DNA of 64,000 nt from Bacillota bacterium (GTDB lineage: Bacteria; Bacillota; Clostridia; Acetivibrionales; JANLFN01), in NCBI GenBank assembly GCA_023421675.1, contig JAEZTC010000013.1, positions 464,037 to 528,036 of the forward strand, written 5' to 3'. A model generated the notes under the pieces. It had not been told where the DNA came from. It was given only the letters and a program-made list of their open reading frames with translations, and searched no databases. This document shows positions 1,407 to 62,590 of the stretch, piece after piece; the stretch's first letter is position 1, and each line of letters begins with the position of its first letter. The position numbers and the translations under genes are program-made.

Positions 1407-1407
1407 T

Positions 1408-2385: not shown

Positions 2386-2430
2386 TGCTAAGGATCATGC
2401 CTTAACATAAAAAAACTAGGAGGGAAATTT

Positions 2431-33778: not shown

Positions 33779-33812
33779 TTTTTGAACCCCTCTCTTAATG
33801 TATGAATACGTA

Positions 33813-33841
33813 ATTTTAACATTATTATCAAGGGGTTACAA
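33813..33841 (-). promoter_or_regulatory. Candidate sigma-A promoter of paralog A (TTGTAA-17-TAAAAT) inside a duplicated 41-nt block
   Basis: The block 33811-33851 matches 37362-37402 at 40 of 41 positions. On the minus strand it reads TTGTAA, a 17-nt spacer, then TAAAAT, about 35 nt upstream of the start codon. Confidence 0.5.
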
Positions 33842-33976
33842 TAATAACTAACAATAATTTACAGAATCTATTTCATTGTCGACAAAGACTCTCTCTAATG
33901 GATAATAATATTATCTTTGTTATCAAAATTTACAACGTTTTAGTGTGTATGAAATAGGCTTATATTTACTAAAATT

Positions 33977-35629: not shown

Positions 35630-35678
35630 TTTATGCCCCCTGAATATTAATGATAAAATTTATTAAACATTTTTAATA

Positions 35679-44608: not shown

Positions 44609-46159
44609 TTAATGAACTTTTTCCTCTATTTTAGTCTTTATTGTTTTTAGTGCCGGCCCTTCCACGATTTCTCCTTCATAGGTAAACCTTGAACCATGAC
44701 ATGGACAATCCCAACTCTTTTCTGCAGCATTCCACTCAAGCCCGCATCCCAGATGTGTACAGGAGGTATCTACAAAATGCAGCTGATTTGCTGCATCACA
44801 GTATACTCCAACTTTCTTTCCATCAACTTCGGCAATTTTTCCCTCTCCTGGCTTGATATCCTTCAAATAGTCTGCGGGTAGAATTTTTCCTCTTACAAAA
44901 TTAACTGCTACATCAGCATTCTCCTTAAGGAATTCCTTGGCAGAGGCTTCAACGGTTATTCTTGAGGGGCTATACACATCTTCCCATGGGCTTTTGCCCC
45001 TGGTTATAAGATCAGTTAATATCATAGCTGACGCATGGCTGCTTGTCATACCCCACTTCTGAAACCCTGTAGCCACATATATGTTAGGCGTTTGTGATGT
45101 AAGGTGCCCTATAAAAGGTATGCTGTCCATAGTCATACAATCCTGTGTTGACCAGCGATATAAGACTTCATCCACACCAAAGCTTCCTTTTGCTGAGTTT
45201 AGTACATTTAAATAATGTTGGTTTGTATTTTCTCCATGACCTGTTTTATGATGTTCTCCGCCTACTATAATCATTTCAGTATCCTTGTATGGTTGTGAAC
45301 GGAAAGAGACACCAGGGTCTTCAGCTGTTATATACATTCCGCCCGGGTACTTTTCATGCGGTATTATTCCTAATGCGTAGGAACGTTCAGGATAAATCCT
45401 TGTGAAATATAGGCCGCGCTTATCGTAGAATGGGTAATGAGACGCAATAACTACATTGGATGCAAATACCTTAAACCCGGAATCTGTAATCACTGTACAT
45501 GATTTACCTTCTTCAAGGTCCACTGCTCTGGTATTTTCATATATTTCACAGCCCATGTCTGTTATAATTCTTGCAAGGCTGAGAAGATACTTCCTTGGAT
45601 GGAATTGCGCCTGATTGTCAAATCTTACTGCTGCCTTAACCTTGAAGGGCATTGGCGTTTCTTCAATATAATGTGCATTAATACCTAGACTGGCAGCAGT
45701 TTTTGCTTCATTTTCGATTTTACTTATATACTTGTCCAAATGTGTGTAAACATATGCTGATTGCTGCTTGAAGTCACAATCTATATTGTTTTCTGAAACT
45801 ATTCTTGAAATCATTTTTATTGCATTTTCATTTGCATCTGCATATTGTTTTGCCATATCCAGACCTAAGCTATTTGCGGTTTTGTCATATATAAGGCCAT
45901 GCTGTGAGGTGATTTTAGCAGTTGTATGGGCTGAAGTTCCCTGCACAATTTTATCAGCTTCAAGTATAACCACTTCAAGACCTTCTTTAAGCAGCATATA
46001 TGCGGTAACAATTCCTGTCATTCCTCCGCCTACAATTACCACGTCCGTGCTGATATTTTCATTTAAACTTGGATAATTGGTTGTACCCGTTGAATCTACC
46101 CAATAGGGAAAAGGTGCACCTTTAAAGTATCTGCTCCATATAATTTCTTCTGATTGCAT
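44609..46159 (-). CDS. FAD-dependent oxidoreductase with C-terminal Rieske [2Fe-2S] domain (YhfW-like)
   Basis: N-terminal DVVIVGGGMTG dinucleotide fold. The C-terminal Rieske motifs are CTHLGC...CPCHGSRF. Confidence 0.85.
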   Translation of the reverse strand: MQSEEIIWSRYFKGAPFPYWVDSTGTTNYPSLNENISTDVVIVGGGMTGIVTAYMLLKEGLEVVILEADKIVQGTSAHTTAKITSQHGLIYDKTANSLGLDMAKQYADANENAIKMISRIVSENNIDCDFKQQSAYVYTHLDKYISKIENEAKTAASLGINAHYIEETPMPFKVKAAVRFDNQAQFHPRKYLLSLARIITDMGCEIYENTRAVDLEEGKSCTVITDSGFKVFASNVVIASHYPFYDKRGLYFTRIYPERSYALGIIPHEKYPGGMYITAEDPGVSFRSQPYKDTEMIIVGGEHHKTGHGENTNQHYLNVLNSAKGSFGVDEVLYRWSTQDCMTMDSIPFIGHLTSQTPNIYVATGFQKWGMTSSHASAMILTDLITRGKSPWEDVYSPSRITVEASAKEFLKENADVAVNFVRGKILPADYLKDIKPGEGKIAEVDGKKVGVYCDAANQLHFVDTSCTHLGCGLEWNAAEKSWDCPCHGSRFTYEGEIVEGPALKTIKTKIEEKVH

Positions 46160-46174
46160 TTTAATACCTCCTGA

Positions 46175-47146
46175 TCATTTTTTATTAATATTAATATCTC
46201 CGCTTATTTCCATACCTGTATTAAAGCCTGTTCCTTCAAAAATTACCGCACCATCATCTGCTGAAAGTTTAACTTCTGATACAGCTGAAATACTTTCAAT
46301 AATTTCACGGCTCATGATGCCATTTTTCGGTGCTTTCAGCACTAATCCCGGTGTATTTACCACTTTCATTGAAAGGGTATTTTTTTTATCTTTAAGGATA
46401 AATTCCAATGTATTATCTTGGTAGTTGAGCTTATCAACCTTAGCACCGGTGTATGTAGCAAATTTATAAAATCTCTCTCCTATTCTTATAAAAGATATAA
46501 AGCCATTAAAGGATGACATTAAAAAAGGGACTTTTGCTGTTGAAAACATTACAGAAACGTCACCGTTTTCAAAATTATTGCATTGAACCCAAACCCAATT
46601 GTCAGGGAATGATTTCCCCCAATCCTTTTCAATATAACCATGACCATTGTCGAATGAAAGTTGTTTCCCGTCAATTTTTAGAGTACCGCTTACCTCATGG
46701 TGGACATTTATGACACCATGTCTGCACTGCATAAAGGGCATGTATGAAAAAGGACCCATTATTCCCGGACTTAAAAAGCCTTTGGGGAAAGGTACAATAT
46801 TTTTAAAGTCTAGCTTACCATTTACTGAGCCAGTTTTGTTGTCTAAGTCAAGAATCATTGTTTTTTTGTCAAAATAACTTTTGCCTATTCTTATCTTGAA
46901 TTCCTTGGACGAATGATCAAAATCTGAAAGCTTATATTTAAAATACTTGAACTTTCCGCTTAAAGAGTCAATTACCTGTACAAAAGAGTGGGAATCCTCC
47001 TTGCTCTTTCCCAGCGATATTCCAGGTATGACAGCAATTACATTCTTTTTACTTACGTCTGCGGCCTTAAAATACCAGCCTTCAAAGTAATTCTTCTTTT
47101 GATTTCTGCCCTGAAAAAACTCAGGATTGGATGCTTTAAAAGCCAT
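46175..47146 (-). CDS. Tocopherol-cyclase-like family protein
   Basis: The N-terminal NYFEGWYFK motif and a length of about 320 aa resemble bacterial members of the tocopherol cyclase family. It sits directly upstream of the FAD/Rieske gene in the same operon (15-nt gap). Confidence 0.5.
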   Translation of the reverse strand: MAFKASNPEFFQGRNQKKNYFEGWYFKAADVSKKNVIAVIPGISLGKSKEDSHSFVQVIDSLSGKFKYFKYKLSDFDHSSKEFKIRIGKSYFDKKTMILDLDNKTGSVNGKLDFKNIVPFPKGFLSPGIMGPFSYMPFMQCRHGVINVHHEVSGTLKIDGKQLSFDNGHGYIEKDWGKSFPDNWVWVQCNNFENGDVSVMFSTAKVPFLMSSFNGFISFIRIGERFYKFATYTGAKVDKLNYQDNTLEFILKDKKNTLSMKVVNTPGLVLKAPKNGIMSREIIESISAVSEVKLSADDGAVIFEGTGFNTGMEISGDININKK

Positions 47147-50827: not shown

Positions 50828-50845
50828 TATTATCGATTATTATCG
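50828..50845 (+). promoter_or_regulatory. Direct repeat TATTATCG x2 with 10-nt period, abutting the cluster promoter (candidate operator)
   Basis: Read directly: TATTATCG occurs at 50828-50835 and 50838-50845, ending 8 nt upstream of the -35 hexamer. Confidence 0.35.
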
Positions 50846-50853
50846 TTTAGTAA

Positions 50854-50882
50854 TTGACAACAAAAAAACAACAGAATATAAT
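50854..50882 (+). promoter_or_regulatory. Consensus sigma-A promoter (TTGACA-17-TATAAT) of the carbohydrate cluster
   Basis: Both hexamers are exact consensus with a 17-nt spacer. The -10 ends 39 nt before the ATG at 50922, and RBS aaggag lies between. Confidence 0.75.
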
Positions 50883-50921
50883 AATACATGAAAGTAAAAA
50901 TAACAACAAAGGAGATAATAT

Positions 50922-51941
50922 ATGAAGGACGGTAAAATTGGCATATGTCTAGTCGGAGCAGGAAGAGCAGGAATGATTCATGCAGTTAATTTTAAAAGCA
51001 GAGTACCCAATGCAGAAATGGTTGCAGTTGCCGATCCGTTTGAGCAGGCTTGTATTACTGCTTGCAAAGAACTTTCAATCTCAAAATATTATCTTGATTA
51101 CAGACAAGCTCTGGAGGATAAGGATATTGACGCTTTCGTTGTTGTTGCACCTACCGCTTACCATAAGGGTATTGTTGTTGATGCGGCTAGAGCAGGAAAA
51201 CATATATTGTGTGAAAAACCAATGGCAATGGACGAAAATGAATGTGATGAAATGATAAAGGTAACAAATGAGAATAAAGTAAAGCTCCAAATAGGTTTTA
51301 TGAGAAGATACGATGAAAGCTTCATGCAAGCGAAGGAAGTTGTAGAAAGCGGAGAAATTGGCAACGTTGTTATGGTAAGATCAAACACCAGAGGACCTAG
51401 TGTTCCTCAAAAATGGATGTATGACATTACTAAAAGCAACGGGCCTCTTGCAGAAGTTAACAGTCATGACATAGATACCTTGAGATGGTTTACCAACAGT
51501 GAATTCAAATCTGTTTATGCTATAGGCGGAAATTACAGATCCCCTGAAGCACTGCCTGATTTCCCTGACTTTTATGACAATGTTACTATGAATGCACAGT
51601 TTGAAAATGGAATGCAGGGAATAATTGACGGAGCACAGGGAGTGGCCTACGGTTACGATGCAAGGGTTGAAATACTGGGAACAAAGGGTATTATCTTCCT
51701 TGGTCAGGTTCATGAAAAATCAATTGCCGTATGTACAAAGGAAAAAGGTATCACAAGACCGATAATGAACAGCTGGAGATATCTTTTCAGGGAAGCTTAC
51801 CTTGAGGAAGACAGACATTTTGTAGAATGCATTCTTAACGACCTGACTCCAAAGGTTACCGGAGTTGATGGAAAAATGGCAGTAAAGGTTGTTAAAGCAG
51901 GTAATAAGTCAATAGTGGAAAAGAAAATTATAGAACTGTAA
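50922..51941 (+). CDS. Gfo/Idh/MocA-family NAD(P)-dependent oxidoreductase (inositol-2-dehydrogenase-like)
   Basis: N-terminal Rossmann motif GICLVGAGRAG and the EKP motif (ILCEKPMAM). The 339-aa length is IolG-like. Confidence 0.8.
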   Translation: MKDGKIGICLVGAGRAGMIHAVNFKSRVPNAEMVAVADPFEQACITACKELSISKYYLDYRQALEDKDIDAFVVVAPTAYHKGIVVDAARAGKHILCEKPMAMDENECDEMIKVTNENKVKLQIGFMRRYDESFMQAKEVVESGEIGNVVMVRSNTRGPSVPQKWMYDITKSNGPLAEVNSHDIDTLRWFTNSEFKSVYAIGGNYRSPEALPDFPDFYDNVTMNAQFENGMQGIIDGAQGVAYGYDARVEILGTKGIIFLGQVHEKSIAVCTKEKGITRPIMNSWRYLFREAYLEEDRHFVECILNDLTPKVTGVDGKMAVKVVKAGNKSIVEKKIIEL

Positions 51942-51972
51942 CTAATAATATTCATGACAAGGAGAATTAATT

Positions 51973-52923
51973 ATGAAACTACCGGAAAAGGCAACGCAGC
52001 CAACAATGTATTTTATAGGTGTTACTACTTCAAAATCATCAATTATGAAGCTGTTCCCATTATGGGCAAAAGCACTGGGTTTAAAGGATGCTGTAATAAA
52101 AGGCATAGATATTGAAATACATGCAAAGCCAGAGGTTTACCGCGAAGTTGTTGAATTTATTAAGAATGATGAGCTGTCACTTGGTGCACTTGTTACAACT
52201 CATAAAATAGACCTTTATAATGCTGCCAAAGATATGTTCGAATATCTTGATCCATATGCACAAATGTTTGGTGAGCTTTCTTCCATTTCAAAGAAAGACG
52301 GAAGGCTCGAGGGATTTGCAAAGGACCCTATATCAAGTGGCTTAGCAATGGAAGCCTTTATTCCTGAAAACTTCTTTAAGGATCACGGGGGCGAATTATT
52401 TATACTTGGTGCAGGTGGAAGTGCAATAGCAATTAGTTCATATCTTTTGAATAAAAGTAAGGGCGACAATATCCCTTCAAAAATTATTGTAGGCAACCGC
52501 AGCCAGCCAAGACTTGATGAAATTGCGAGAATTGTAAAAGAGATTAATTCCGACGTAAAATCCGAATACTACCTTACACCTGAAGCTGAAATAAGCGATG
52601 AGCTTCTTAAGAAGGTAAAGCCATATTCTGTAGTTATAAACGCTACAGGTCTTGGAAAGGATAGACCAGGTTCACCGCTTACAGACAAATGTGAATATCC
52701 TGAAAATTGTCTTGTATGGGAACTGAATTACCGCGGTGAATTAGATTTCATGCATCAGGCATTAAAACAAAAGGATACTAAGAAGCTTCATGTTGAAGAT
52801 GGTTGGATTTACTTCATACACGGCTGGACTCAGGTTATTGCAGAAGTATTCCATATTGAAATCAAAGGAAAGATATTTGATGAACTTGAAAGAATTGCTG
52901 GTGAAAGCTGTAAACCACAATAG
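51973..52923 (+). CDS. Shikimate/quinate-dehydrogenase-like family protein
   Basis: An AroE-like N-terminal substrate domain (IGVTTSKSS..., ALVTTHK) and a Rossmann motif ILGAGGSAIA. It is divergent from canonical AroE. Confidence 0.5.
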   Translation: MKLPEKATQPTMYFIGVTTSKSSIMKLFPLWAKALGLKDAVIKGIDIEIHAKPEVYREVVEFIKNDELSLGALVTTHKIDLYNAAKDMFEYLDPYAQMFGELSSISKKDGRLEGFAKDPISSGLAMEAFIPENFFKDHGGELFILGAGGSAIAISSYLLNKSKGDNIPSKIIVGNRSQPRLDEIARIVKEINSDVKSEYYLTPEAEISDELLKKVKPYSVVINATGLGKDRPGSPLTDKCEYPENCLVWELNYRGELDFMHQALKQKDTKKLHVEDGWIYFIHGWTQVIAEVFHIEIKGKIFDELERIAGESCKPQ

Positions 52924-52944
52924 TTTAACAATCATTATTTACTG

Positions 52945-52956
52945 TTTGTTAACAAA
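52945..52956. promoter_or_regulatory. 12-bp perfect palindrome TTTGTTAACAAA, 7 nt upstream of the internal promoter -35 (candidate operator)
   Basis: Read directly. Confidence 0.3.
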
Positions 52957-52963
52957 TGCATTA

Positions 52964-52992
52964 TTGACTTTCGAAAAACGATAAAATATAAT
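52964..52992 (+). promoter_or_regulatory. Near-consensus sigma-A promoter (TTGACT-17-TATAAT), internal to the cluster
   Basis: Read directly. It lies in the 178-nt gap before the Zn-dehydrogenase gene. Confidence 0.65.
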
Positions 52993-53101
52993 AAAATACA
53001 TCACCACTAATCGCTTTATATAACAAATATCAATAATGAATTATATTTTTATACTGCGTATTTTTTAAATTAACAATTCACTTGAATATGGGGGAATAAT
53101 A

Positions 53102-54148
53102 ATGCTAGCTGCAAGAATGTACGGCAAAGGCGACCTCAGAATAGAAAATGTCAATATTCCTGAAATAAATGAAAATGAAGTGCTTGTAAGGGTCAAATGT
53201 GCTGCTATATGCGGTACTGACGTAAGAATATTGGGAAACGGCAGCCCTTACGCTACAGAGAATAATCCAAGAATTCTGGGTCATGAATTAAGTGGAATTA
53301 TAGAAAAGGTTGGTTCAAATATTAAAGGATATAAGGAAGGTATGAGAGTTGCGGTTGCCCCAAATATGGGCTGTGGTATATGCAGCTTTTGTATAAGCGG
53401 AAACGGACAGCTTTGCAAGGATTACAGGGCGCTTGGAATAAATATAGATGGCGGCTTTGCGGAATTCGTTAAGATACCTGAAGAAGCTGTAAGGCAGGGA
53501 AACATAACTATACTTTCAGATTCGGTATCTTTTGAAGAAGCAGCTATTAATGAAGCATTTTCGTGTGCTTATAATGGTTTTTCGAGGTGTGCTCTGCAAC
53601 CTGGTGAAACCTGTCTAGTAATAGGTGCCGGTGCAATTGGAATAATGCATGCTAAGCTTGCGAAAATGCATGGTGCATCAAAGGTAATAATCAATGATCT
53701 TTCTCAGGAAAGGCTTGATGTTTGTAAAGAAATAGATGAGAGCTTCATGGTTTATTGTGGAAGTGATGGTCTTAAGGAGTTTATTGAAAAGGAAACCGGT
53801 GGAAACGGCGTTGATGTAACAATAGTAGCATGTCCTGCTCCACAGGCACAGATTATGGCACTTGAGCTTGCTGCTGTTAACGGCAGAATAAACTTTTTTG
53901 GCGGCCTGCCCACAGACAAACAGAATGTTCCAATCAACAGCAACCTTGTACATTACAAACAACTGATAATTACCGGAACCACAAGAGCGAGCCTTACACA
54001 ATACAGAAAAACACTTGATTTTATAGCTGCAGGGGTTATTGATGTTAAAAGGCTTGTTACAGGTAAATTCAAGCTTGAAGATATAAAGGCAGGTTTTGAA
54101 CTTTCAAGTGCAACAAAAGGATTGAAAAATGTAGTATATTTTGAATGA
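53102..54148 (+). CDS. Zinc-dependent medium-chain alcohol/polyol dehydrogenase (sorbitol/threonine-dehydrogenase-like)
   Basis: Catalytic Zn motif GHELSG, structural Zn Cys cluster (CGICSFCISGNGQLC), and Rossmann motif VIGAGAIG. Confidence 0.88.
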   Translation: MLAARMYGKGDLRIENVNIPEINENEVLVRVKCAAICGTDVRILGNGSPYATENNPRILGHELSGIIEKVGSNIKGYKEGMRVAVAPNMGCGICSFCISGNGQLCKDYRALGINIDGGFAEFVKIPEEAVRQGNITILSDSVSFEEAAINEAFSCAYNGFSRCALQPGETCLVIGAGAIGIMHAKLAKMHGASKVIINDLSQERLDVCKEIDESFMVYCGSDGLKEFIEKETGGNGVDVTIVACPAPQAQIMALELAAVNGRINFFGGLPTDKQNVPINSNLVHYKQLIITGTTRASLTQYRKTLDFIAAGVIDVKRLVTGKFKLEDIKAGFELSSATKGLKNVVYFE

Positions 54149-54254
54149 TTGTCACACTTAGCACCGTAAGCCAAATTGAATATTGAAGAATATTTGACAC
54201 GTTTAAGGCAGAAAATACAAAAATACTCAGGCTTAATAAGCAAGAGGTGTGATT

Positions 54255-55271
54255 ATGAAAAAGACTTATGAAAATGAAAATACAATAATGACGGTGAATG
54301 GACCTATCTGGAGCAAGGATTTGGGCTTTTGCCACAGCCATGAACATTTATTCATTGCAAAAGGCAAATCAGCTGAAATTAATCCGTCGTTATGTATTGA
54401 TAATTTTGAAAAGACTGTAAAAGAACTCAGACTCTTTAAAAAAGTCGGAGGAGAGAGTATTGTAGATGCTCAGCCCATAGGCTGCGGCAGGATGGCAAAC
54501 CTTCAGTATAAGGCATCTGCTGTTTCAGGTATCAATATTATTTCTTCTACAGGGTTTCATAAGCTTGAATTCTATAAAAACGGTCACTGGATAAATAAAT
54601 TAAGCATGGATGACCTTTCGGAAGTATTTATCAGTGAGTATGAAAAAGGCATGTATCTTGATGGAGATGATGAATATCCTTCCAGACGCATATGGGCAAA
54701 ACCTGGAGTTATAAAGGTTGCATCCGATGAAAACGGAATACGCAGCAGCTATATAAAATTATTTAATGCAGCAGCAGTAGCTTCAATTGAGACAGGGCTT
54801 CCTATCCTGGGTCACACTGAAATGGGTATTGCGGGACTAGCCCAGGCGGAATTTTTTCTTATTCGTGGTATTCCTGCTTCATCAATTGTAATCTGCCATA
54901 TGGACAGAAAGCTTAATGACTACAGTTATACAAAAGCAGTACTCAATACTGGTGTATATCTTGAGTTCGACACTATAGGAAGATTTAAATACCATTCGGA
55001 CGAGGATGAAGCAAAACTCATTTTAAAACTTGTTGAAGACGGATATGAGGACCAAATACTTATCGGTCTTGATACTACCCGTGAACGTTTCAAAAGTTAT
55101 AACGGTGTTATAGGATTGGACTATATAAAAGAGAGCTTTATACCTCTTCTTAAAAAATACGGTTTGTCACAATCCATAATAGACAAGTTTGTAATCAGTA
55201 ATCCATCGCGGGCATTCTCAAATCATAAAGCTAAATGTGTAAGTATTGATAAAAAAGTTCGCAGCATTTAA
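54255..55271 (+). CDS. Phosphotriesterase-homology (PTE/PHP, COG1735) amidohydrolase-superfamily protein, probable lactonase
   Basis: ATG at 54255 lies 7 nt after GAGG. The N-terminal metal motif is GFCHSHEHLF, with later H and D ligands (GHTE, CHMD, GLD) spaced as in PTE-like proteins. Confidence 0.75.
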   Translation: MKKTYENENTIMTVNGPIWSKDLGFCHSHEHLFIAKGKSAEINPSLCIDNFEKTVKELRLFKKVGGESIVDAQPIGCGRMANLQYKASAVSGINIISSTGFHKLEFYKNGHWINKLSMDDLSEVFISEYEKGMYLDGDDEYPSRRIWAKPGVIKVASDENGIRSSYIKLFNAAAVASIETGLPILGHTEMGIAGLAQAEFFLIRGIPASSIVICHMDRKLNDYSYTKAVLNTGVYLEFDTIGRFKYHSDEDEAKLILKLVEDGYEDQILIGLDTTRERFKSYNGVIGLDYIKESFIPLLKKYGLSQSIIDKFVISNPSRAFSNHKAKCVSIDKKVRSI

Positions 55272-55292
55272 TCAAATTTAAAGAGGTGCAAT

Positions 55293-55886
55293 ATGAGCGG
55301 AAACAGCAGCAGTTTTGATTGGGAAAAACCATTTAAAATTTATTTTGATCTTAAGAACGGTAAATCAGACAATGCAAGACCAACTCCACGTAAGCTTTCA
55401 AACATGAAGGGAATGTTCAACGACGAGGCAGCCTTTGAAAAATTGGTTAAGGAAGGCGACCCTCTTGTTTATGACTTCTATGAGCTTGGAGCACCGGAAA
55501 ATCCTGGTGATTTGGCATTCGGCACAAGTATCACTTACCCCGGCAAGGTGGGTAACGAATTTTTTATGACCAAGGGTCATTTCCATACAATACTGGACAC
55601 AGCTGAGGTTTATTACTGCTTAAGCGGAAAAGGTTATATGCTCATGGAAGATCCGGAAGGGAACTGGGACGCTCAGGAACTGACACCCGGTAAGGTTGCC
55701 TATGTACCTAAAAGGTGGGCACACAGGAGCGTAAACATCGGCAATGAACCTTTCATAACCTTCTTCGTTTTCAGAGGGGATGCAGGACATGATTATGGAA
55801 CTATTGAAACTAAGGGATACAGGAAGCTTATTGTAGAAAAAGACGGAAAAGTAGAAATCATAGATAATCCAAGGTGGAAAAAATAG
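55293..55886 (+). CDS. Cupin-type glucose-6-phosphate isomerase (archaeal-type cPGI family)
   Basis: A 197-aa ORF. The motifs TKGHFHTILDTAEVYYCLSG and VPKRWAHRSVN correspond to the TxGHxH...E.Y and PxxxxHRxxN signatures of cupin PGIs. Confidence 0.8.
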   Translation: MSGNSSSFDWEKPFKIYFDLKNGKSDNARPTPRKLSNMKGMFNDEAAFEKLVKEGDPLVYDFYELGAPENPGDLAFGTSITYPGKVGNEFFMTKGHFHTILDTAEVYYCLSGKGYMLMEDPEGNWDAQELTPGKVAYVPKRWAHRSVNIGNEPFITFFVFRGDAGHDYGTIETKGYRKLIVEKDGKVEIIDNPRWKK

Positions 55887-55906
55887 CTTAAGTGAGGTAA
55901 TGATAT

Positions 55907-56554
55907 ATGTCAAAAAAGTGGGAAATTTTAAATAGATTAACTGCCTCCGGTCTTGTTGTAGTAGTAAGAGCGGAAAGTGCAGATCAGGCAAACAGAATTA
56001 CAGAGGCTTGCCTTGAAGGCGGAGCTGCTGCCATTGAAATAACATATACAACGCCGGATGCATCAAAGGTTATAGAGCAACTTGCAAAGAACTATAAACC
56101 CGAAGATATTATTATCGGTGCCGGCACGGTACTGGATCCTGAAACAGCAAGAATTGCAATATTATCTGGAGCTCAATATGTAGTAAGTCCTCATCTCAAC
56201 ATTCAGACACTTAAACTCTGCAACAGATATCAGGTTCCGTGCATGCCCGGTATTATGACTATAGAAGGTGCTGTTGAAGCCATGGAAAACGGTGCGGACA
56301 TTATAAAGGTTTTCCCTGGGGAGGCTTTTGGACCCAAGATAATTAAAGCTATTAAAGGTCCTTTGCCTCAAGCAAATATGATGCCTACCGGAGGAGTTTC
56401 TGCAGATAATGTAGGTGAATGGATAAAGGCCGGAGCGGTTGCAGTAGGTGCCGGTGGTCAGCTTACTGCCGGAGCTAAGACGGGTGACTATGAATCTATA
56501 ACAAAATTGGCTAAGGAATTTGTGGCAAAAATCAAAGAAGCCCGTTCAAAATAG
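55907..56554 (+). CDS. eda: KDPG/KHG-family class I aldolase (2-dehydro-3-deoxy-phosphogluconate aldolase-like)
   Basis: A 215-aa ORF with motifs VVVVRA, GAAAIEITYTTP, GAGTVLD and KVFPG (Schiff-base Lys context). PTGGV lies near the C-terminus. Confidence 0.85.
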   Translation: MSKKWEILNRLTASGLVVVVRAESADQANRITEACLEGGAAAIEITYTTPDASKVIEQLAKNYKPEDIIIGAGTVLDPETARIAILSGAQYVVSPHLNIQTLKLCNRYQVPCMPGIMTIEGAVEAMENGADIIKVFPGEAFGPKIIKAIKGPLPQANMMPTGGVSADNVGEWIKAGAVAVGAGGQLTAGAKTGDYESITKLAKEFVAKIKEARSK

Positions 56555-56586
56555 TTCTCTTTTAATAAAATGACAGGAGTGCTTTT

Positions 56587-58113
56587 ATGGCCATAGGTTA
56601 TCTTATTGGAATAGATATTGGTACACAAGGAACTAAAACTTCACTTATATCAGTTGATGGTACAGTTATATCTGAATCATTTGAGCAGTCAAGACTTATA
56701 TACCCTGAAAAAGGTGCTGTAGAGCAGGAACCTGATGAAATCTACCTTTCATGCCTTAGAACAATCAAGGAAGCTGTAATTAAAGCAGATATAGACCCAA
56801 AGGATATTCTTGCTTTAGGTATAGATGGGCAAATGGCTGGAATCCTCGGAATAGATAAGGATTGGAACGCTGTTACCCCTTATGATTCCTGGCTTGATAA
56901 CAGATGCAGCGAATATAAGGATCTAATAAAGGAATGGGATGCGGAAAAGGTGGTTTCCATTTCCGGATGTCCCGCAATGATACATCATGCACCTAAAATA
57001 ATGTGGTGGAAGAATAAAAGGCCTGAAAGCTATGCAAGAATAAATAAGTTCATTATGCCAGGTGCCTATGTAGCGGGAAGAATGTGCGGCTTAAAAAGCG
57101 ATAAGGCATATATAGATTACACATATCTTCATTTTACAGGTTTATCGGATTTGAAAAATCTCAAGTGGTCTGATGAACTGCTGAATGCATTCGGAATAGA
57201 AAAGTCAAAAATGCCTGAGATTGTTGAGCCGTGGAAAATTATCGGAACAATAAATTCGGAAGCTGCAGCACAATGCGGACTAAAGCAGGGGACGCCTGTA
57301 ATTGCAGGCTGTGGTGACACATCTGCTACCGCTTATGGGGCAGGAATTGTTGAGAAAGGAATCGCTTTTGATGTTGCAGGTACTGCATCAGTATTCTCGT
57401 GCTGCGTTGATGAATATTCACCGGATATTAATAATAAGACTCTGATATTTGCAAAATCGGTAATACCGGGCTTATGGAATCCAATGGCTTATATCAGCGG
57501 AGGCGGCCTTTGCCTTAAATGGCTAAGAGATGAGCTCAATACAAAAGAATATTCCTACTCATATAAAGAACTTGATGTTATGGCAGCCGGTATTCCAGCC
57601 GGAAGTGAAGAACTTATATTTATCCCGCATTTTAACGGCAGATTGCTGCCGGATGTTCCAAATATAAGAGGAAGCTGGATGGGCCTTAGTTGGGTTCATA
57701 CCAAGGCTCATTTGTACAGATCCATTATGGAAGGAATTGCATATGAGTATAAGTACTATCTTAGCATATTGAAAAGTCTTGTGGGAAATATTGAACTGTC
57801 TCATGTGCTTGCAATAGGCGGAGGAGCGAAAAGCCGACTTTTCAACTCCATAAAGGCTGATGTGCTTGGAGTGCCATATAGTACACAGGACAGAAGTGAT
57901 ACTGCAACACTTGGAGTGGCAATACTTGCGGGCTATGGAGCAGGTATATATAATGATTTGGTAACGGCTATAAAGGGTATTGTAAAACATGAAGGATTGG
58001 TACAACCTGAAACAAAAAACGCAGATGTTTACAACAGGTTTTCAAAAGTATATGAAGATTCCTTTGAAATGTTTGATAAATTTTACAGGGGGCTGCTTGG
58101 TTCCAATATTTAA
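56587..58113 (+). CDS. FGGY-family carbohydrate kinase (xylulokinase-like)
   Basis: N-terminal GIDIGTQGTK, plus the later motifs GCGDTSA and GGGAKS typical of FGGY kinases. Confidence 0.88.
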   Translation: MAIGYLIGIDIGTQGTKTSLISVDGTVISESFEQSRLIYPEKGAVEQEPDEIYLSCLRTIKEAVIKADIDPKDILALGIDGQMAGILGIDKDWNAVTPYDSWLDNRCSEYKDLIKEWDAEKVVSISGCPAMIHHAPKIMWWKNKRPESYARINKFIMPGAYVAGRMCGLKSDKAYIDYTYLHFTGLSDLKNLKWSDELLNAFGIEKSKMPEIVEPWKIIGTINSEAAAQCGLKQGTPVIAGCGDTSATAYGAGIVEKGIAFDVAGTASVFSCCVDEYSPDINNKTLIFAKSVIPGLWNPMAYISGGGLCLKWLRDELNTKEYSYSYKELDVMAAGIPAGSEELIFIPHFNGRLLPDVPNIRGSWMGLSWVHTKAHLYRSIMEGIAYEYKYYLSILKSLVGNIELSHVLAIGGGAKSRLFNSIKADVLGVPYSTQDRSDTATLGVAILAGYGAGIYNDLVTAIKGIVKHEGLVQPETKNADVYNRFSKVYEDSFEMFDKFYRGLLGSNI

Positions 58114-58140
58114 CTGCAAAAGAACTTATATTTGTTATAT

Positions 58141-58170
58141 AATTTAGTTAATATGTTTTAAAACTAAATT
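58141..58170. promoter_or_regulatory. 9-bp inverted repeat AATTTAGTT-12 nt-AACTAAATT immediately upstream of the DeoR gene (candidate operator)
   Basis: Read directly. It ends 14 nt before the ATG at 58185 and overlaps the RBS region. Confidence 0.3.
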
Positions 58171-58184
58171 TGGAGTGATAAATA

Positions 58185-58973
58185 ATGGATCAGGCAGAAA
58201 AAGAGCCTATGTTTGCAGAGGAACGTAAGAGAAAGATTTTGGAGTTGCTTGAACAGAATGAAAAAATTAGTGTTCAGGAGCTGTGTGAATATTTTGGAGT
58301 AAGCAGTTCAACAATAAGGAACGACCTAAGGGAAATGGACAGTGAAAAGCTGCTTGAAAGGACGCATGGCGGTGCCATACTTCCCTCTAAAAAGAGCTTT
58401 GAACTTACTTCAACCCAAAAGGAAGTCAAGAACCTTGATGAAAAGAAAGCCATTGCGCAAATAGCTGCAGATATGATTGAAGATGGCGACACCATTCTTC
58501 TTGATACGGGTACAACAACGCTTGAACTTGCAAGAAATCTTAAAAATAAAAGGGATATAACTGTAGTCGTTAATGATATAGAAATAGCCCGCTGCCTTGA
58601 GGATTTTGATGGAGTGAGTATTATACTTCTTGGCGGCATAATGCGTAAAAAGTTTCACTGTGCAGTTGGACCCATTGCAATTAATGCGCTGTCAACATTA
58701 AGCGTAGATAAAGCTTTTATGGCAACCAATGGAGTTTCATTCAAAAAAGGCCTGTCAACACCTGAAATCAATCAGGCGGAAGTTAAAAAAATGATGATAT
58801 CTATTTCTTCCGAAGTAATTTTGTTATGTGACAGCAGTAAAATCGGCAAGGATTCATTTGTTAAATTCGCATCCATTTCGGAAATAAATAAAATAGTTAC
58901 AGACTCAAATCTTAGTAAATATGATGCAGCAGAATTTGAAGAAAATAAAATTGAAGTAATAATTGCAAAATAA
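58185..58973 (+). CDS. DeoR-family transcriptional regulator
   Basis: N-terminal HTH (ERKRKILELLEQNEKISVQELCEYFGVSSSTIRNDL) and a C-terminal DeoR sugar-phosphate sensor domain. Confidence 0.9.
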   Translation: MDQAEKEPMFAEERKRKILELLEQNEKISVQELCEYFGVSSSTIRNDLREMDSEKLLERTHGGAILPSKKSFELTSTQKEVKNLDEKKAIAQIAADMIEDGDTILLDTGTTTLELARNLKNKRDITVVVNDIEIARCLEDFDGVSIILLGGIMRKKFHCAVGPIAINALSTLSVDKAFMATNGVSFKKGLSTPEINQAEVKKMMISISSEVILLCDSSKIGKDSFVKFASISEINKIVTDSNLSKYDAAEFEENKIEVIIAK

Positions 58974-58999
58974 ATCACAATAATATAGGGGGTAATATA

Positions 59000-60316
59000 A
59001 TGAAGGCACGTTTGCTTCCGGTCTATTTTGATTCAACAAAAAACGAAGAATATGATGAGCAGTATAAAATAATCAAGGAATTACTCAAGGATGAAGCAGA
59101 GCTGCTTGAACCTGTACCTTTAGGAGCCCCTGTTAACGATGTTGATGCTGTGGTTTTTCTGCAGCTTGTGGGTGAAGCTTACAGACAGGTAAAATCCATA
59201 CAAAACATAAATGTGCCTATAGTAATCATAACCTCTGAGTTTGGAACGGTAGCGATGTGGGACTGGGAAATAGTTACCTTTCTCAAGCAAAACGGTGTAA
59301 AGCCTCTTACGCCATATAATATTGAAATAACAAAAACAATTTGCCGTTCACTGGCACTTAAAAAAGAGCTTAAGAATACAAAATTCCTTATCTTCCAGGA
59401 CAACCCCGGTGAAGGTATGCAGGCTAGTATTTTCAAACGCTTTTACTGGTGGGAAAATGAATGTACCCAGCTTATAAAAGAAAAACTGGGTGTTTCTATT
59501 GAAAAAATGAGTTTTAAAAAACTTGCAGAGGATGCAAAGCAAATCTCCGATGAAGCAGCTGAAGCAGAGTGGAAAAAGTGGGATTTTAAAAATGAAGGTG
59601 TTTCAACAAAGTCCATTTTAAGTGCAGTTAAAATATATCTTGCAGTAAAAGAAATTACGGATAAGGATAGCAGTATTAAAGGAATAGGCGCAAACTGCCT
59701 TAATGAATCCTTCTTTTCTGACACTACTCCATGCCTTGCCTGGAATATGCTTTATGAAGAAAAGGGCATTATTTGGGCATGCGAGGGAGATACAATGTCG
59801 CTTTTGACAGAATATATAATTAACAAATCTCTCAATACACCGGTAATGACAAGCAATGTGTACCCCTTCCTTATGGGAATGGCTGCACTGAAACATGAAA
59901 AAATTGATAAGTTCCCGCAGGCTGATGACCCGGACAACCATATACTTGTTGTACACTGCGGCTATACCGGTCTAATGCCAAGGTGCATGTGCACTGAATG
60001 GACTATGCGTCCAAAAGTACTTGGTATTGTAGACGATAACGCTATTGCAATAGATTCAAGAATGCCTGAAGGAGATGTAACTCTTGCAAAGCTCCACCCA
60101 TCCTTTGATAAGCTTCTTATCATAGAGGGTGACCTTGAAAAGTATGTTCAATATCCTGGATCAGACTGCAGAAATGGCGCGCTTATAAAGGTTAAGGACG
60201 GTCATAGGATAATGGATGAGCTTTATTCACATCATGACATTCTTATGAATGGTAAGAGGGCAGTAGAGCTTAAAGCTATGGCTAAGGTTCTTGGACTGGT
60301 GTCTGAAGAAATTTAG
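59000..60316 (+). CDS. Uncharacterised protein, L-fucose/L-arabinose-isomerase-like (COG2407-like) fold suspected
   Basis: A 438-aa ORF. The GANCLNES...WACEGD segment resembles the sugar isomerase family core. The assignment is tentative. Confidence 0.4.
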   Translation: MKARLLPVYFDSTKNEEYDEQYKIIKELLKDEAELLEPVPLGAPVNDVDAVVFLQLVGEAYRQVKSIQNINVPIVIITSEFGTVAMWDWEIVTFLKQNGVKPLTPYNIEITKTICRSLALKKELKNTKFLIFQDNPGEGMQASIFKRFYWWENECTQLIKEKLGVSIEKMSFKKLAEDAKQISDEAAEAEWKKWDFKNEGVSTKSILSAVKIYLAVKEITDKDSSIKGIGANCLNESFFSDTTPCLAWNMLYEEKGIIWACEGDTMSLLTEYIINKSLNTPVMTSNVYPFLMGMAALKHEKIDKFPQADDPDNHILVVHCGYTGLMPRCMCTEWTMRPKVLGIVDDNAIAIDSRMPEGDVTLAKLHPSFDKLLIIEGDLEKYVQYPGSDCRNGALIKVKDGHRIMDELYSHHDILMNGKRAVELKAMAKVLGLVSEEI

Positions 60317-60439
60317 TTATCTATAAATATTATAACAATATAATGAAATATCAAATTTTTGACTATTCATAAGTGAATAAGTTTGGCTTGTGAAAGAAAG
60401 CCTTATATTAGAAATTATAAGAATAGGGAGGATAAGAAC

Positions 60440-61615
60440 ATGAGGCAACTGAATATCGCTCTCATAGGCTACAAGTTTATGGGAAAGGCACACAGTTTCG
60501 GTATTGATGCTGCACCTTTCTTCTTCAAAAACGGTGTTAAACCTGTCAAAAAGCTTATATGCGGACGCACAGAGCACCTTGTAAAGCAGGCTGCAGAGGA
60601 ATTCGGCTGGGAATGGTATTGTACCGACTGGCGTGAAGCTTTGGAAAGGGACGACATCGACATTATTGACATTGCGACTCCTACTGTAAATCATAAGGAA
60701 ATTGCCATAGCTGCTGCTAAGGCAGGAAAACATATCTTTTGTGAAAAGCCTCTTGCCATGAATGCGGCAGAAGCAAAAGAAATGTATGAAACCGCTGAAA
60801 AGTATAAGGTTAAGCATATGCTTGGACATAACTACCGCAGGGTTCCAGCTATAGCATTTGCTAAAAAGCTTATAGAAGAAGGTAAACTAGGTGAAATATA
60901 TCACTTCAGAGGCGTATACCTTCAGGACTGGATAATGGATCCCGATTTCCCTGCAATATGGAAGCTTGATAAAAGTGTAGCTGGATCAGGGCCTCATGGG
61001 GATTTGAATGCACATATAATTGATCTTGCAAGGTTCCTTGTAGGTGAAATTGATAAGGTTGTAGGTATGCAGGAGACCTTTATCAAGAAAAGACCAAAGG
61101 CTGTTGTAGAGGAAAAGCTTTCTACCATGCTTACTGCTGAAGGTGATGAGGTTAAAAAGGAATATGTTGATGTAACAGTAGACGACACTACAGCTTTCCT
61201 TGCCAAATTCAAGAATGGTGCTGTTGGTACCTTTGAAGCAACAAGGTTTGCGGGTGGCAGAAAGAATCATGAAAGAATCGAAATAAACGGCAGTAAGGGC
61301 TCATTGGTATTCAATTTTGAAAGAATGAACGAGCTTGAATTCTGGTCCAAGGAAGATGACCTTGAAGTACAGGGCTTCAGGACAATACTTGTAACAGAGG
61401 GCGTACATCCATATATAAGCAACTGGTGGCCTGCAGGACACGTTATAGGATATGAGAATACCTTTGTAAATGAATTTGCGGATTTCTTCCAGAACATTCA
61501 GGAGGATACAATGCCTCATCCTAATTTCTTTGACGGCTGGAAAAATAATCAGGTGCTTGATGCAGTTACAAAATCCATTGAAACGGGTACATGGCAAAAT
61601 ACTGACGATATGTAA
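60440..61615 (+). CDS. Gfo/Idh/MocA-family oxidoreductase (long, about 391 aa)
   Basis: ATG at 60440 follows gggagg (the ORF opens at 60383). Rossmann motif IALIGYKFMGKAH and EKP motif IFCEKPLAM. Confidence 0.85.
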   Translation: MRQLNIALIGYKFMGKAHSFGIDAAPFFFKNGVKPVKKLICGRTEHLVKQAAEEFGWEWYCTDWREALERDDIDIIDIATPTVNHKEIAIAAAKAGKHIFCEKPLAMNAAEAKEMYETAEKYKVKHMLGHNYRRVPAIAFAKKLIEEGKLGEIYHFRGVYLQDWIMDPDFPAIWKLDKSVAGSGPHGDLNAHIIDLARFLVGEIDKVVGMQETFIKKRPKAVVEEKLSTMLTAEGDEVKKEYVDVTVDDTTAFLAKFKNGAVGTFEATRFAGGRKNHERIEINGSKGSLVFNFERMNELEFWSKEDDLEVQGFRTILVTEGVHPYISNWWPAGHVIGYENTFVNEFADFFQNIQEDTMPHPNFFDGWKNNQVLDAVTKSIETGTWQNTDDM

Positions 61616-61665
61616 ATAGTGGTATCAAAATTTAAATATAAATACCAATCAAGGGAGGATTCAGT

Positions 61666-62526
61666 ATGAAAGTTGGAATTGATAGTTATTGTTATCACAG
61701 GTTTTTTGGAGAGGTTTACCCTGACCAGAAGAGGCCTGAAAAAAACATGACAATGCAGGATTTTCTCAAGAGGGCAAAGGAACTCGATGTTGACGGTGTA
61801 TCACTGGAATCATGCTTTTTCCCAAGCTATGATGAAGGCTGGCTGAAGGAATTAAAGGCACAGCTTGATGAATATGGGTTTGACCGTGTTTATGCATGGG
61901 GCCACCCCGATGGTCTTGAACGCGGTAAAAGTATAGATGCATATAATGACATGATAGCAAATATACCAAGGGCTAAAGCAATAGGTGCCGATGTAATGCG
62001 TGTAACAGGAAGCAGCCTGATGTTCAGACATGAACCTCATGGGCCGCAAATAGAGGCTTTGACTAAACAATTCAAGGATGCAATCAAGATCGCAGAAGAA
62101 TATGGTATAAAAATGGCTGTAGAAAATCATATTGATTTTACTTCAGATGAAATTCTGCAAATCCTTGAAGGAGTAAACTCGCCTAATTTTGGACTCAATT
62201 TTGATACAGGCAACTTCCTAAGGCTTCTTGATGATCCGGTAGCAGGTATGGAAAAGCTTGCACCTTATGTATTTGCAACACATGTTAAGGACCTTATGCC
62301 TGATAAAAATGCAGCTCCTACCGAATGGTTCTTCTTTGCAGGAGTACCGGTTGGAAAGGGACTTATAAATAACCAAAAGCTTGCCGAAATGCTTAAAAAG
62401 GCAAATTATAAAGGCTTCCTGGCTGTAGAAATAGATCATCCTCACACTGATTGGACAGGACTTGAAGATGAAGCTGTTGCTATAAGCGTTAAGGAACTCA
62501 AAAAGATATCTGATGCACTAAAGTAA
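61666..62526 (+). CDS. Xylose-isomerase-like TIM-barrel protein (sugar phosphate isomerase/epimerase family)
   Basis: A 286-aa ORF with the metal-ligand pattern VENH...DTGN...HVKD...EIDH typical of the AP_endonuc_2 / xylose isomerase-like TIM family. Confidence 0.8.
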   Translation: MKVGIDSYCYHRFFGEVYPDQKRPEKNMTMQDFLKRAKELDVDGVSLESCFFPSYDEGWLKELKAQLDEYGFDRVYAWGHPDGLERGKSIDAYNDMIANIPRAKAIGADVMRVTGSSLMFRHEPHGPQIEALTKQFKDAIKIAEEYGIKMAVENHIDFTSDEILQILEGVNSPNFGLNFDTGNFLRLLDDPVAGMEKLAPYVFATHVKDLMPDKNAAPTEWFFFAGVPVGKGLINNQKLAEMLKKANYKGFLAVEIDHPHTDWTGLEDEAVAISVKELKKISDALK

Positions 62527-62548: not shown

Positions 62549-62590
62549 AAAAAGTAAAAGACAGATGATAGCCATCTGTCTTTACTTTTA
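62549..62590. terminator. Bidirectional Rho-independent terminator ending the cluster
   Basis: Long hairpin agtaaaagacagatg-atagc-catctgtctttact, with an A-run before and a T-run after. Confidence 0.8.

Follow-up and report, generated by a model that had tools for sequence, protein, structure and literature searches.

The oxidative pentose-phosphate and Entner-Doudoroff (ED) pathways proceed, through Pgi, Zwf, Pgl, Edd and Eda, by way of a sugar-phosphate isomerase, a C1 dehydrogenase, a phospho-lactonase and a KDPG-type aldolase (KDPG, 2-keto-3-deoxy-6-phosphogluconate). A similar succession is predicted for a cluster of 11 co-directional genes (g1 to g11, plus strand, 50922-62526) in the 64-kb stretch of Bacillota DNA analysed here (contig JAEZTC010000013.1; hereafter the window), although all of the enzymes but Eda come from other superfamilies: a cupin in place of the SIS-type phosphoglucose isomerase (PGI), a shikimate dehydrogenase (SDH)-family or GFO/IDH/MocA enzyme in place of Zwf, and a phosphotriesterase (PTE)-family or metallo-beta-lactamase (MBL)-fold hydrolase in place of Pgl. 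Unlike the ED and pentose-phosphate genes, the cluster has no Edd, its relatives co-conserve a D-2-hydroxyacid dehydrogenase (2-HADH), and the unit forms part of a larger cluster that has transporter, isomerase and kinase genes for an exogenous sugar; neither Edd nor another sugar-acid dehydratase linked to Eda was found in the cluster or among the annotated neighbour families of the contexts examined. With moderate confidence, we interpret the region as one DeoR-controlled catabolic operon, or two co-regulated units, and as a transporter-less, rearranged copy of a widespread cluster for a neutral monosaccharide, a polyol or a closely related compound.

The cluster also resembles the AraA/AraB, FucI/FucK and XylA/XylB operons, in that g9 has the AraA/FucI fold in its predicted model and, in relatives, adjoins an FGGY kinase and a sugar ATP-binding cassette (ABC) transporter. 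However, g9 is only 10-16% identical to these isomerases, with one of the two AraA catalytic glutamates aligned, and the cluster contains four dehydrogenases, a lactonase and an Eda-type aldolase where those operons would have a class II aldolase or an epimerase. As far as homology can tell, it behaves as an isomerase-kinase operon for sugars to which an upper segment of the ED/oxidative pentose-phosphate kind, assembled from non-canonical superfamilies, has been joined. It is a sugar operon built from known superfamilies and not a new kind of biological system.

Comparison with levoglucosan, inositol and other described pathways

Family assignments throughout are based on Pfam and NCBIfam profile scans of the window proteins. 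In levoglucosan catabolism, LgdA, LgdB and LgdC carry the substrate through oxidation, elimination, hydration and reduction to glucose, and an account of the cluster as a variant of this route or of the Thermotoga-type inositol route has to be weighed, although we find it improbable. The likeness to the LgdA/LgdB1/LgdB2(3)/LgdC set lies in g10 (60440-61615; 391 aa; longest open reading frame (ORF) from TTG 60383), a GFO/IDH/MocA oxidoreductase of the LgdA/4h3v clade, being followed by g11 (61666-62526; 286 aa), a xylose-isomerase-like TIM-barrel protein (Pfam PF01261, 120.9 bits), together with a second GFO/IDH/MocA gene in the cluster and ABC uptake systems in its relatives. On the levoglucosan dehydrogenase model NF052479, g10 scores 429.5 against a cut-off of 650, which leaves it outside the LgdA equivalog, and its 343-bit match to LgdA (6a3f) is exceeded by one of 405 bits to the uncharacterised 4h3v. 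For g11, matches in the PDB are remote (best 3tva, 47 bits), and those in NCBIfam amount to a weak UlaE match and an IolE score of 35.8 (cut-off 290), with no IolO match. Published levoglucosan clusters contain LgdB1 and LgdB2 or LgdB3, plus LgdC (PMC10066097, PMC7676230), whereas our cluster has a single TIM barrel. The LgdA set of PMC10066097 was defined by E < 1e-200, which that paper equates with >60% identity; by its score of 343 bits against 6a3f, rather than by identity, g10 lies outside that set. The g11 gene occurs together with g10 in related loci, and the pair is an optional module, absent from the closest relative examined (locus L082).

The inositol side of the same account draws on g1 and g3. 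The former (50922-51941; 339 aa; Pfam PF01408 and PF22725) is an IolG-like GFO/IDH/MocA oxidoreductase that scores 283.6 on TIGR04380 (iolG; cut-off 355), and the latter (53102-54148; 348 aa; Pfam ADH_N and ADH_zinc_N) is a Zn-dependent medium-chain alcohol/polyol dehydrogenase whose best NCBIfam match, Tdh (205 bits, cut-off 380-458), and second best, IolM (200.3, cut-off 450), both fall far short. The two genes adjoin each other in most relatives, which recalls the adjacent GFO and Zn-dependent dehydrogenase pair of the Thermotoga maritima iolGMNO genes, as do the TIM-barrel proteins and the CUT2 uptake systems of the relatives. The Thermotoga inositol route attributed to Rodionova and colleagues (2013) reportedly continues via UxaB, the dehydratase UxaA, KdgK and KdgA. 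Against a variant of either pathway, the LgdA, IolG, IolM and IolE cut-offs are missed by wide margins, so that g1, g3 and g11 cannot be counted as the IolG, IolM and IolE/IolO of a myo-inositol pathway, and the IolD, IolB, IolC, IolJ and UxaB/UxaA families, of which inositol catabolism would need the first four or UxaA-type enzymes, have no member among the 11 genes. Moreover, the window cluster has an FGGY kinase, a cupin PGI, a lactonase and an SDH-like enzyme, none of which is used in either the levoglucosan or the inositol pathway. The Luteolibacter L-glucose/L-galactose pathway was also considered and rejected, as it uses a UxaA-type dehydratase and has an unrelated gene content (PMC12632266).

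Because the defining enzymes are either absent or under threshold, the cluster, as assigned by profile, is outside the levoglucosan, inositol (Bacillus and Thermotoga), ED, hexuronate and L-glucose pathways. The original prediction that the gene set maps onto no characterised pathway is thus upheld by the LgdA, IolG, IolM, IolE, XylB, GntK and phospho-furanose-lactonase cut-offs, every one of which was missed. A full-text literature search, with most subscription journals outside its reach, found no publication describing this gene set.

Recurrence of the gene set across phyla

The signature gene of the cluster is g9 (59000-60316; 438 aa), and we used it to scan one genome per species (185,579 species; tblastn, E <= 1e-3). 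This confirmed 436 places, of which the best 80 were taken with 10-kb flanks and searched by tblastn with the window proteins and recurrent extra families. At least three other cluster families accompany g9 in 42 of the 80 loci, and the carriers belong to at least eight groups (Bacillota, Chloroflexota, Planctomycetota, Acidobacteriota, Desulfobacterota, Actinomycetota, Atribacterota and Alphaproteobacteria), among them Paenibacillus, Peribacillus, Cohnella, Vallitalea, Mahellales, Desulfobacterales, Anaerolineae/Caldilineaceae and one alphaproteobacterial metagenome-assembled genome (MAG). Counts among the 42 loci are lower bounds, as many contigs are short: g5 and g7 were each found in 33, g3 in 32, g1 in 31, 2-HADH and g2 each in 29, g10 in 26, g11 in 19, g6 in 18, g4 in 14 and a CUT2 ABC permease in 13. 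Gene order is shuffled between phyla and yet the same families re-associate; their co-localization with g9 in more than half of the loci, across many phyla, argues that the grouping is more than chance. Window proteins are 56-83% identical to their orthologues in the closest loci. The same g9 query found no tblastn match among 72,556 plasmids and hence no rhizobial megaplasmid carrying the gene.

The arrangement of the relatives is informative. In L082, whose g9 is 72% identical, a GntR gene is followed by 2-HADH, PTE, g2, cupin PGI and Eda genes, and then by DeoR, g1, g3, FGGY kinase, g9, solute-binding protein, ATPase and permease. Petroclostridium sp. X23 has the order solute-binding protein, GFO/IDH/MocA, ATPase, permease, Zn-dependent dehydrogenase, PTE, g2, cupin PGI, GntR and FGGY kinase. 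Operons of Peribacillus, Metabacillus and Pullulanibacillus run from CUT2 solute-binding protein, ATPase and permease through two Zn-dependent dehydrogenases, in some cases a NagB-like gene, then 2-HADH, PTE, g2, cupin PGI and Eda, and are without g9, g11, GFO/IDH/MocA and FGGY genes. The PTE, g2 and cupin PGI genes are contiguous in the g9-homologue-seeded loci L082 and L083 as well as in all four contexts seeded with g2 (Peribacillus, Petroclostridium, Metabacillus and Pullulanibacillus), and form the most consistently adjacent unit that we saw. Loci L012 and L082 share the order g1-g3-g7-g9-ABC transporter, echoing the pairing of isomerase and FGGY kinase in AraA/AraB and FucI/FucK.

Such variability raises the question of whether there is a single pathway at all. 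In the alternative, the modules g10-g11, g1-g3, g9-g7 and PTE-g2-cupin PGI(-Eda) would stand under one regulator, each feeding a related compound (polyols, keto-sugars, ketoaldonates or lactones) into a common metabolite such as fructose 6-phosphate (F6P) or 6-phosphogluconate. The dispensability of parts is in line with this: L082 lacks g10 and g11, the Bacillales operons lack g1, g7, g9, g10 and g11, g9 stands by itself, or in the company of g10 and a TIM barrel only, at many loci of Spirochaetota and Atribacterota, L084 retains only DeoR and g9, and the gene order is shuffled. Nevertheless, about eight families come together again and again in different phyla, a pattern that speaks for functional interdependence, and the contiguity of PTE, g2 and cupin PGI suggests consecutive steps; we regard a mosaic of independent feeders as unlikely.

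The g9 family itself has at least one further genomic context. In L084 (10001-13060), where the other cluster genes are absent, a DeoR gene precedes g9, and about 630 bp downstream an aldo-keto reductase that carries Fe-S domains is encoded; in three Spirochaetota MAGs (L008, L015 and L020) g9 stands between an ABC system and an aldo-keto reductase. Other recurrent neighbours are lineage-specific. A PF01182-family gene is present in Bacillales clusters (L013, 8104-8904; L090, 7024-7752; L091, 7025-7822), of which the L013 copy passes the NagB (glucosamine-6-phosphate deaminase) cut-off of 237 with 277 bits, while those of L090 and L091 are Pfam calls only; this hints that F6P or an amino sugar may be involved there. 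An Old-Yellow-Enzyme-family gene (PF00724, ~380-420 aa) recurs in the Desulfobacterales-type MAGs L016, L018, L019 and L027, and in L018 and L027 it lies beside a second pair of GFO/IDH/MocA and PF01261 TIM-barrel genes, with the ABC transporter and the main cluster following downstream. A PF00724 ene-reductase would fit enone intermediates.

A putative lactonase, apparently displaced in other phyla, and an SDH-family dehydrogenase

The product of g4 (54255-55271; 338 aa; alternative GTG start 54249) is a putative phospho-sugar lactonase of the PTE family (COG1735). Its membership of the wider family is secure (Pfam PTE 158.8 bits, cut-off 22.4), while its score of 169.2 on the phospho-furanose lactonase model NF045706 falls short of the cut-off of 630. 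The nearest solved relatives are 3msr/3ovg (MS53_0025; 141 bits) and 3pnz (Lmo2620; 134 bits), which are reported to hydrolyse pentono-1,4-lactone-5-phosphates. Likeness to these enzymes extends to the binuclear-metal motifs: the alignment with 3msr conserves the HxH, RxKY and DxxR blocks, and g4 has R245-x-K247-Y248 and D275-x-x-R278 where MS53_0025 has R-x-K-Y and D-x-x-R, blocks whose basic residues reportedly bind the substrate phosphate in the published structures. On the other hand, g4 belongs to a distinct clade, with members up to 50-64% identical to it, and its genomic context (ABC transporter, SDH-like enzyme and cupin PGI) differs from the PTS/ascorbate-like contexts of Lmo2620 and MS53_0025. 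Bh0225, sought as an experimental anchor, was absent from the top 120 homologues of g4.

Across the 42 loci, the 14 with a PTE gene are mostly from Bacillota and Chloroflexota, with one actinomycete. Ten others, from Planctomycetota, Acidobacteriota and an alphaproteobacterium, have instead a UlaG-like MBL-fold hydrolase that weakly matches the L-ascorbate-6-phosphate lactonase UlaG. No locus has both (hypergeometric P 0.009, ignoring phylogeny). This exclusivity looks like non-orthologous displacement between two hydrolase folds, the implication being one conserved, fixed lactone-hydrolysis step.

Adjacent to the lactonase in relatives is g2 (51973-52923 in the window; 316 aa), which has no Pfam match and scores at most 48.5 bits on AroE models (cut-off 413), placing it outside the AroE equivalog. 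A profile of 16 homologues nonetheless aligned with E. coli AroE (hhalign probability 94.6), the invariant D118 falling on the catalytic Asp D102 and the GAGGSA and NRSxxR motifs on GAGGAS and NRT of the NADP site; an invariant VTTHK (K78), which recalls the Lys motif of AroE, lies immediately beyond that alignment. With both the Lys/Asp dyad and the Rossmann NADP motif accounted for, we conclude that g2 is an SDH-superfamily dehydrogenase, probably NADP-linked and other than AroE. The family is large (>8000 database matches), and homologues in Bacilli and Clostridia are 73-84% identical.

Cupin isomerase, aldolase and kinase

The g5 product (55293-55886; 197 aa; Pfam GPI, 104 bits) aligns without gaps to the cupin PGIs of Thermococcus litoralis and Pyrococcus furiosus (1j3p/4lta; 230 bits), with 52% identity to the P. 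furiosus enzyme. It retains TKGHFH, AEVY, WAHR and DAGHDYGTI, which comprise the metal ligands (HxH, E and H) and the phosphate-site motif. We conclude that g5 is a true cupin PGI homologue, for which activity on glucose 6-phosphate (G6P) and F6P is predicted. A KduI-type or unsaturated-uronate enzyme had been considered in view of the PGI-like fold of KduI, and was discarded on the same grounds. In a neighbour-joining tree of g5 homologues from L010-L081 with 1j3p/4lta, which is rough, being midpoint-rooted and without support values, the Thermococcales enzymes are nested among the cluster-linked sequences from bacteria, closest to an Atribacterota sequence and a Planctomycetota-type clade, a placement compatible with inter-domain gene transfer. 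Given the closeness of g5 to an archaeal G6P/F6P enzyme, the phosphate ester handled by the pathway is probably F6P/G6P or a near analogue, which makes the purpose of the route more puzzling rather than clearer.

The following gene, g6 (55907-56554; 215 aa), encodes an Eda-type class I aldolase of the KDPG/KHG family, with scores of 301.9 on PRK06552 (cut-off 238) and 194.2 on TIGR01182 (cut-off 156); it also matches Pfam PF01081 at 152 bits. The kinase g7 (56587-58113; 508 aa; Pfam FGGY_N and FGGY_C) belongs to the FGGY family without reaching either the XylB (312.7, cut-off 380.25) or the GntK (233.8, cut-off 648.55) equivalog; its best PDB match is the gluconate kinase 3gbt (168 bits). The regulator g8 (58185-58973; 262 aa) has the HTH_DeoR and DeoRC domains of the DeoR family. 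DeoR regulators, like the GntR/UTRA ones that relatives have, commonly respond to sugar phosphates.

Fold and conserved residues of g9

No Pfam model matches g9, and its only NCBIfam match, to the sulfoquinovose isomerase SftI, is far under the cut-off (23.9 bits). PMC7491151 makes no statement on the fold of SftI, which leaves this match uninterpretable. We modelled g9 with AlphaFold2 (pLDDT 86.5, pTM 0.89), and a Foldseek search with the model returned AraA at the top (E 5e-19, TM-score 0.65-0.71) followed by FucI (E 1e-12), consistent with their three-domain fold. E306, E333, H350 and H450 are the catalytic glutamates and Mn ligands of E. coli AraA. The invariant E262 of g9 (WACEGD) aligns with E306 (FAGEGD), the position of E333 is non-acidic, and the invariant H299 and H411/H412 are candidate His ligands in an alignment of low confidence (hhalign probability 8%, single-sequence template). 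Homologues are 54-75% identical across very distant lineages. At the level of the modelled fold, the label of isomerase-like protein that g9 had been given is justified. For the other genes, the Pfam and NCBIfam scans agree with the family labels of the original prediction, in the case of g2 through weak shikimate-dehydrogenase matches only.

A proposed route and its difficulties

We propose that a monosaccharide-sized neutral solute would be taken up and converted into a ketose, either from an aldose by the isomerase g9 or from a polyol or related compound by the g1/g3 pair, with the oxidoreductase and TIM barrel of g10/g11 as an optional feeder module. The FGGY kinase g7 would phosphorylate the ketose, and the cupin isomerase g5 would turn the ketose phosphate into an aldose phosphate, most likely F6P into G6P or a close hexose- or pentose-phosphate analogue. 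Oxidation at C1 by the NADP-type g2, or alternatively g1, would give a phospho-lactone, which g4 (or the MBL-fold enzyme in other phyla) would hydrolyse to a phospho-aldonate. After one unassigned step, the Eda-type g6 would yield pyruvate and a triose phosphate. The proposal builds on what is observed, namely which genes are present and with what operon signals, their folds and conserved catalytic motifs, their linkage across phyla and the displacement of the lactonase; the step order, the role of g2 as C1 oxidase and the placing of phosphorylation before oxidation follow from family-level function and adjacency, and are to be read as conditional. An earlier formulation (kinase, sugar-phosphate oxidation, lactone-phosphate hydrolysis, aldol cleavage) gains from the PTE-g2-cupin PGI adjacency, the exclusivity of the two lactonase folds and the types of regulator; what it does not account for is the feed into the aldolase.

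CUT2 systems carry monosaccharide-sized solutes, and their presence in at least 13 loci, with a mutarotase in two Desulfobacterales-type loci, is what points to a substrate of this size. A glycoside, which had also been suggested, is unlikely on the same evidence, and no glycoside hydrolase is found among the annotated recurrent neighbour families.

Several observations weigh against our interpretation. First, the window cluster lacks the CUT2 transporter and the 2-HADH that its relatives have. Second, no sugar-acid dehydratase (ILVD/EDD, enolase-superfamily or UxaA-type) was found among the 11 genes, among the annotated recurrent neighbour families of the 80 loci or in the g2-seeded contexts, which leaves the step into the aldolase unexplained. 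As for the aldolase itself, only 18 of the 42 loci have one and the Petroclostridium cluster does not, so that it may be non-obligatory; the operons of the Bacillales, for their part, do not include an FGGY kinase gene. Should the ester be F6P/G6P, a dedicated isomerase and fructose route would look redundant with housekeeping enzymes. Lastly, only g5 and g6 pass curated family thresholds; by these profile scores the other nine of the 11 proteins are below every curated equivalog cut-off, and their functional labels apply at family level only.

The problem of the dehydratase deserves closer attention. The absence asserted in the original prediction holds for the classical enzymes in the cluster, but family names alone do not suffice to establish it. 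The PF01261 TIM barrels, to which g11 belongs, count dehydratases and beta-eliminases among their members, IolE and LgdB1 being examples. Since the aldolase-bearing Bacillales operons, which have neither g9 nor g11, are also without a recognisable dehydratase, the puzzle is real, and new chemistry in g9 or g11 as a substitute does not explain those operons. The 2-keto-3-deoxy acid may come from a dehydratase encoded at another place in the genome, from a novel activity of g9 or g11, or from a substrate that is deoxy, anhydro or unsaturated to begin with, 2-HADH making the 2-keto group; alternatively, Eda and 2-HADH may act in another role.

The third of these can be developed into a route that needs no dehydratase and starts from such a deoxy, anhydro or unsaturated sugar, whose 3-deoxy centre would be present in the substrate or would arise by oxidation, beta-elimination and reduction (through g10/g11 and the ene-reductase-type enzymes of some relatives). 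In later steps g2 and g4 would oxidise the 3-deoxy-aldose phosphate and hydrolyse the lactone, and 2-HADH would oxidise C2 to give the 2-keto-3-deoxy acid for Eda. The 2-HADH family includes members that act at C2 of phospho-aldonates (SerA, PdxB and 2-keto-6-phosphogluconate reductase), and the gene is present in 29 of the 42 loci, in many of them directly beside PTE or Eda. The lack of a classical dehydratase in every context examined, the recurring Old-Yellow-Enzyme-family gene of the Desulfobacterales-type loci, in some beside the GFO/IDH/MocA and TIM-barrel pair, and the position of g10 in the clade of the anhydrosugar enzyme LgdA can be read in the same direction. The argument is, however, purely chemical, the window cluster has no 2-HADH, its g3 looks like an ordinary Zn alcohol dehydrogenase rather than an ene-reductase, and we know of no abundant natural 3-deoxy neutral sugars; we judge the dehydratase-free route quite unlikely.

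Returning to the catabolic operon that we favour, a bolder version of it would be an undescribed sugar route distributed over at least eight phyla, in which cupin PGI, an SDH-family enzyme and a PTE or MBL hydrolase replace Pgi, Zwf and Pgl, and the substrate of the KDPG-type aldolase is made without a sugar-acid dehydratase, for example when 2-HADH oxidises a 3-deoxy phospho-aldonate or through a novel activity of the AraA-fold g9, the route as a whole serving a natural compound that has yet to be connected with a pathway. We put this forward only tentatively, and on balance doubt it. If the genes do make up one pathway, it would give functions to g9 and g2, two large enzyme families without Pfam models, explain why a close homologue of the glycolytic cupin PGI of Thermococcales is scattered through bacterial sugar operons, and add a carbon source or route to metabolic models of lineages from sediments, digesters and soils that are abundant yet little cultured (Planctomycetota, Chloroflexota, Acidobacteriota, Desulfobacterota and Atribacterota). 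The cluster is also a good case for pathway discovery guided by solute-binding proteins, and several cultured carriers exist.

Transporter and 2-HADH genes in the window

The original prediction noted the lack of any uptake system; this is true of the window cluster but not of its relatives, whose clusters usually include a CUT2 sugar ABC transporter, as that of L082 does. A CUT2 system is present in the window about 47 kb away (9-3456), with an ATPase possibly cut at the window edge (9-1406), a permease (1408-2385) and a binding protein (2431-3456). Its binding protein shares no more than 25-31% identity with those linked to the cluster in relatives, so that the system is not orthologous and was rejected as the missing transporter. 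Directly 3' of it lies a methyl-accepting chemotaxis protein gene (3596-5299). The cluster-linked solute-binding proteins themselves gave only ribose-binding-protein-like matches in the PDB (best 97 and 131 bits), from which no ligand can be inferred.

In relatives, the 2-HADH gene lies beside the lactonase or the aldolase, and without it the copy in the window may be incomplete. The window does contain a 2-HADH paralogue (11776-12732), about 39 kb from the cluster and 31% identical to the cluster-linked enzyme, which adjoins a class A beta-lactamase-family gene (12884-13852).

Organisation of the cluster and its flanks

All 11 ORFs are intact. Gene starts were taken from gene calls on the identical MAG contig L001 and from Shine-Dalgarno motifs, and every gene has an ATG start with an upstream GGAG/GAGG-type Shine-Dalgarno-like motif; intergenic gaps are 20-178 bp. 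Upstream of g1, the promoter-like site P1 (50854-50882, plus strand) has TTGACA and TATAAT boxes separated by a 17-nt spacer and, with a 12/12 sigma-70 match, is the best in the region. A second promoter-like site, P2 (52964-52992, plus strand; 11/12 match), lies in the largest gap, the 178 bp between g2 and g3, and corresponds to the internal promoter that had been proposed there. A bidirectional hairpin resembling an intrinsic terminator (62557-62583; 11-12 bp stem, T-runs on both strands) closes the cluster, and no convincing terminator was seen within it; the description of the genes as a co-directional set between a consensus promoter and a strong terminator is thereby borne out. An Rfam scan of the cluster at E <= 0.1 gave no match and thus no riboswitch or leader RNA.

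Just 5' of the -35 box of P1 are tandem ATTATCG repeats ending in TTATCGTTT (50829-50848, plus strand), a candidate operator. The 9-mer TTATCGTTT, picked post hoc after inspection of both promoter sequences, occurs exactly twice in the window against 0.66 occurrences expected by chance: at 50840-50848 (plus), close to the -35 box of P1, and in inverted orientation at 52976-52984 (minus), inside P2. This hints at a possible shared DeoR operator, and the presence of the 9-mer at both promoter sites argues mildly against independent regulation of two units.

These signals bear on whether the cluster is still functional. A decaying or incomplete remnant, in which the loss of transporter and 2-HADH means that the full pathway is no longer supported, is in keeping with the presence of both in the clusters of relatives, including the closest examined, with the only CUT2 system of the window being distant and non-orthologous, and with the reduction of the related MAG L084 to DeoR and g9. 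Such decay is highly improbable in view of the 11 intact ORFs with their start signals, the strong promoter and terminator signals retained, the 56-83% identity to closest-locus orthologues and the identical or near-identical copies on several independent contigs; the unlinked transporter and 2-HADH paralogue could, furthermore, supply the missing functions.

Both flanks are unrelated to the cluster. Upstream is a MacB/FtsX ABC system, and downstream a minus-strand MoCF gene followed by genes for molybdate uptake and molybdenum cofactor.

Other features of the window

Two further regions, both on the minus strand, are of note. Three tandem paralogues of 550-553 aa (32117-37331) each carry an N-terminal copper-amine-oxidase-like domain (Cu_amine_oxidN1), and in two of the three an SBP_bac_8 solute-binding domain is also detectable. 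At 44609-47146, a fusion of an FAD-dependent oxidoreductase with a Rieske domain (516 aa) adjoins a protein of the tocopherol-cyclase family (323 aa), and to find these two side by side is unusual in a Bacillota-like genome.

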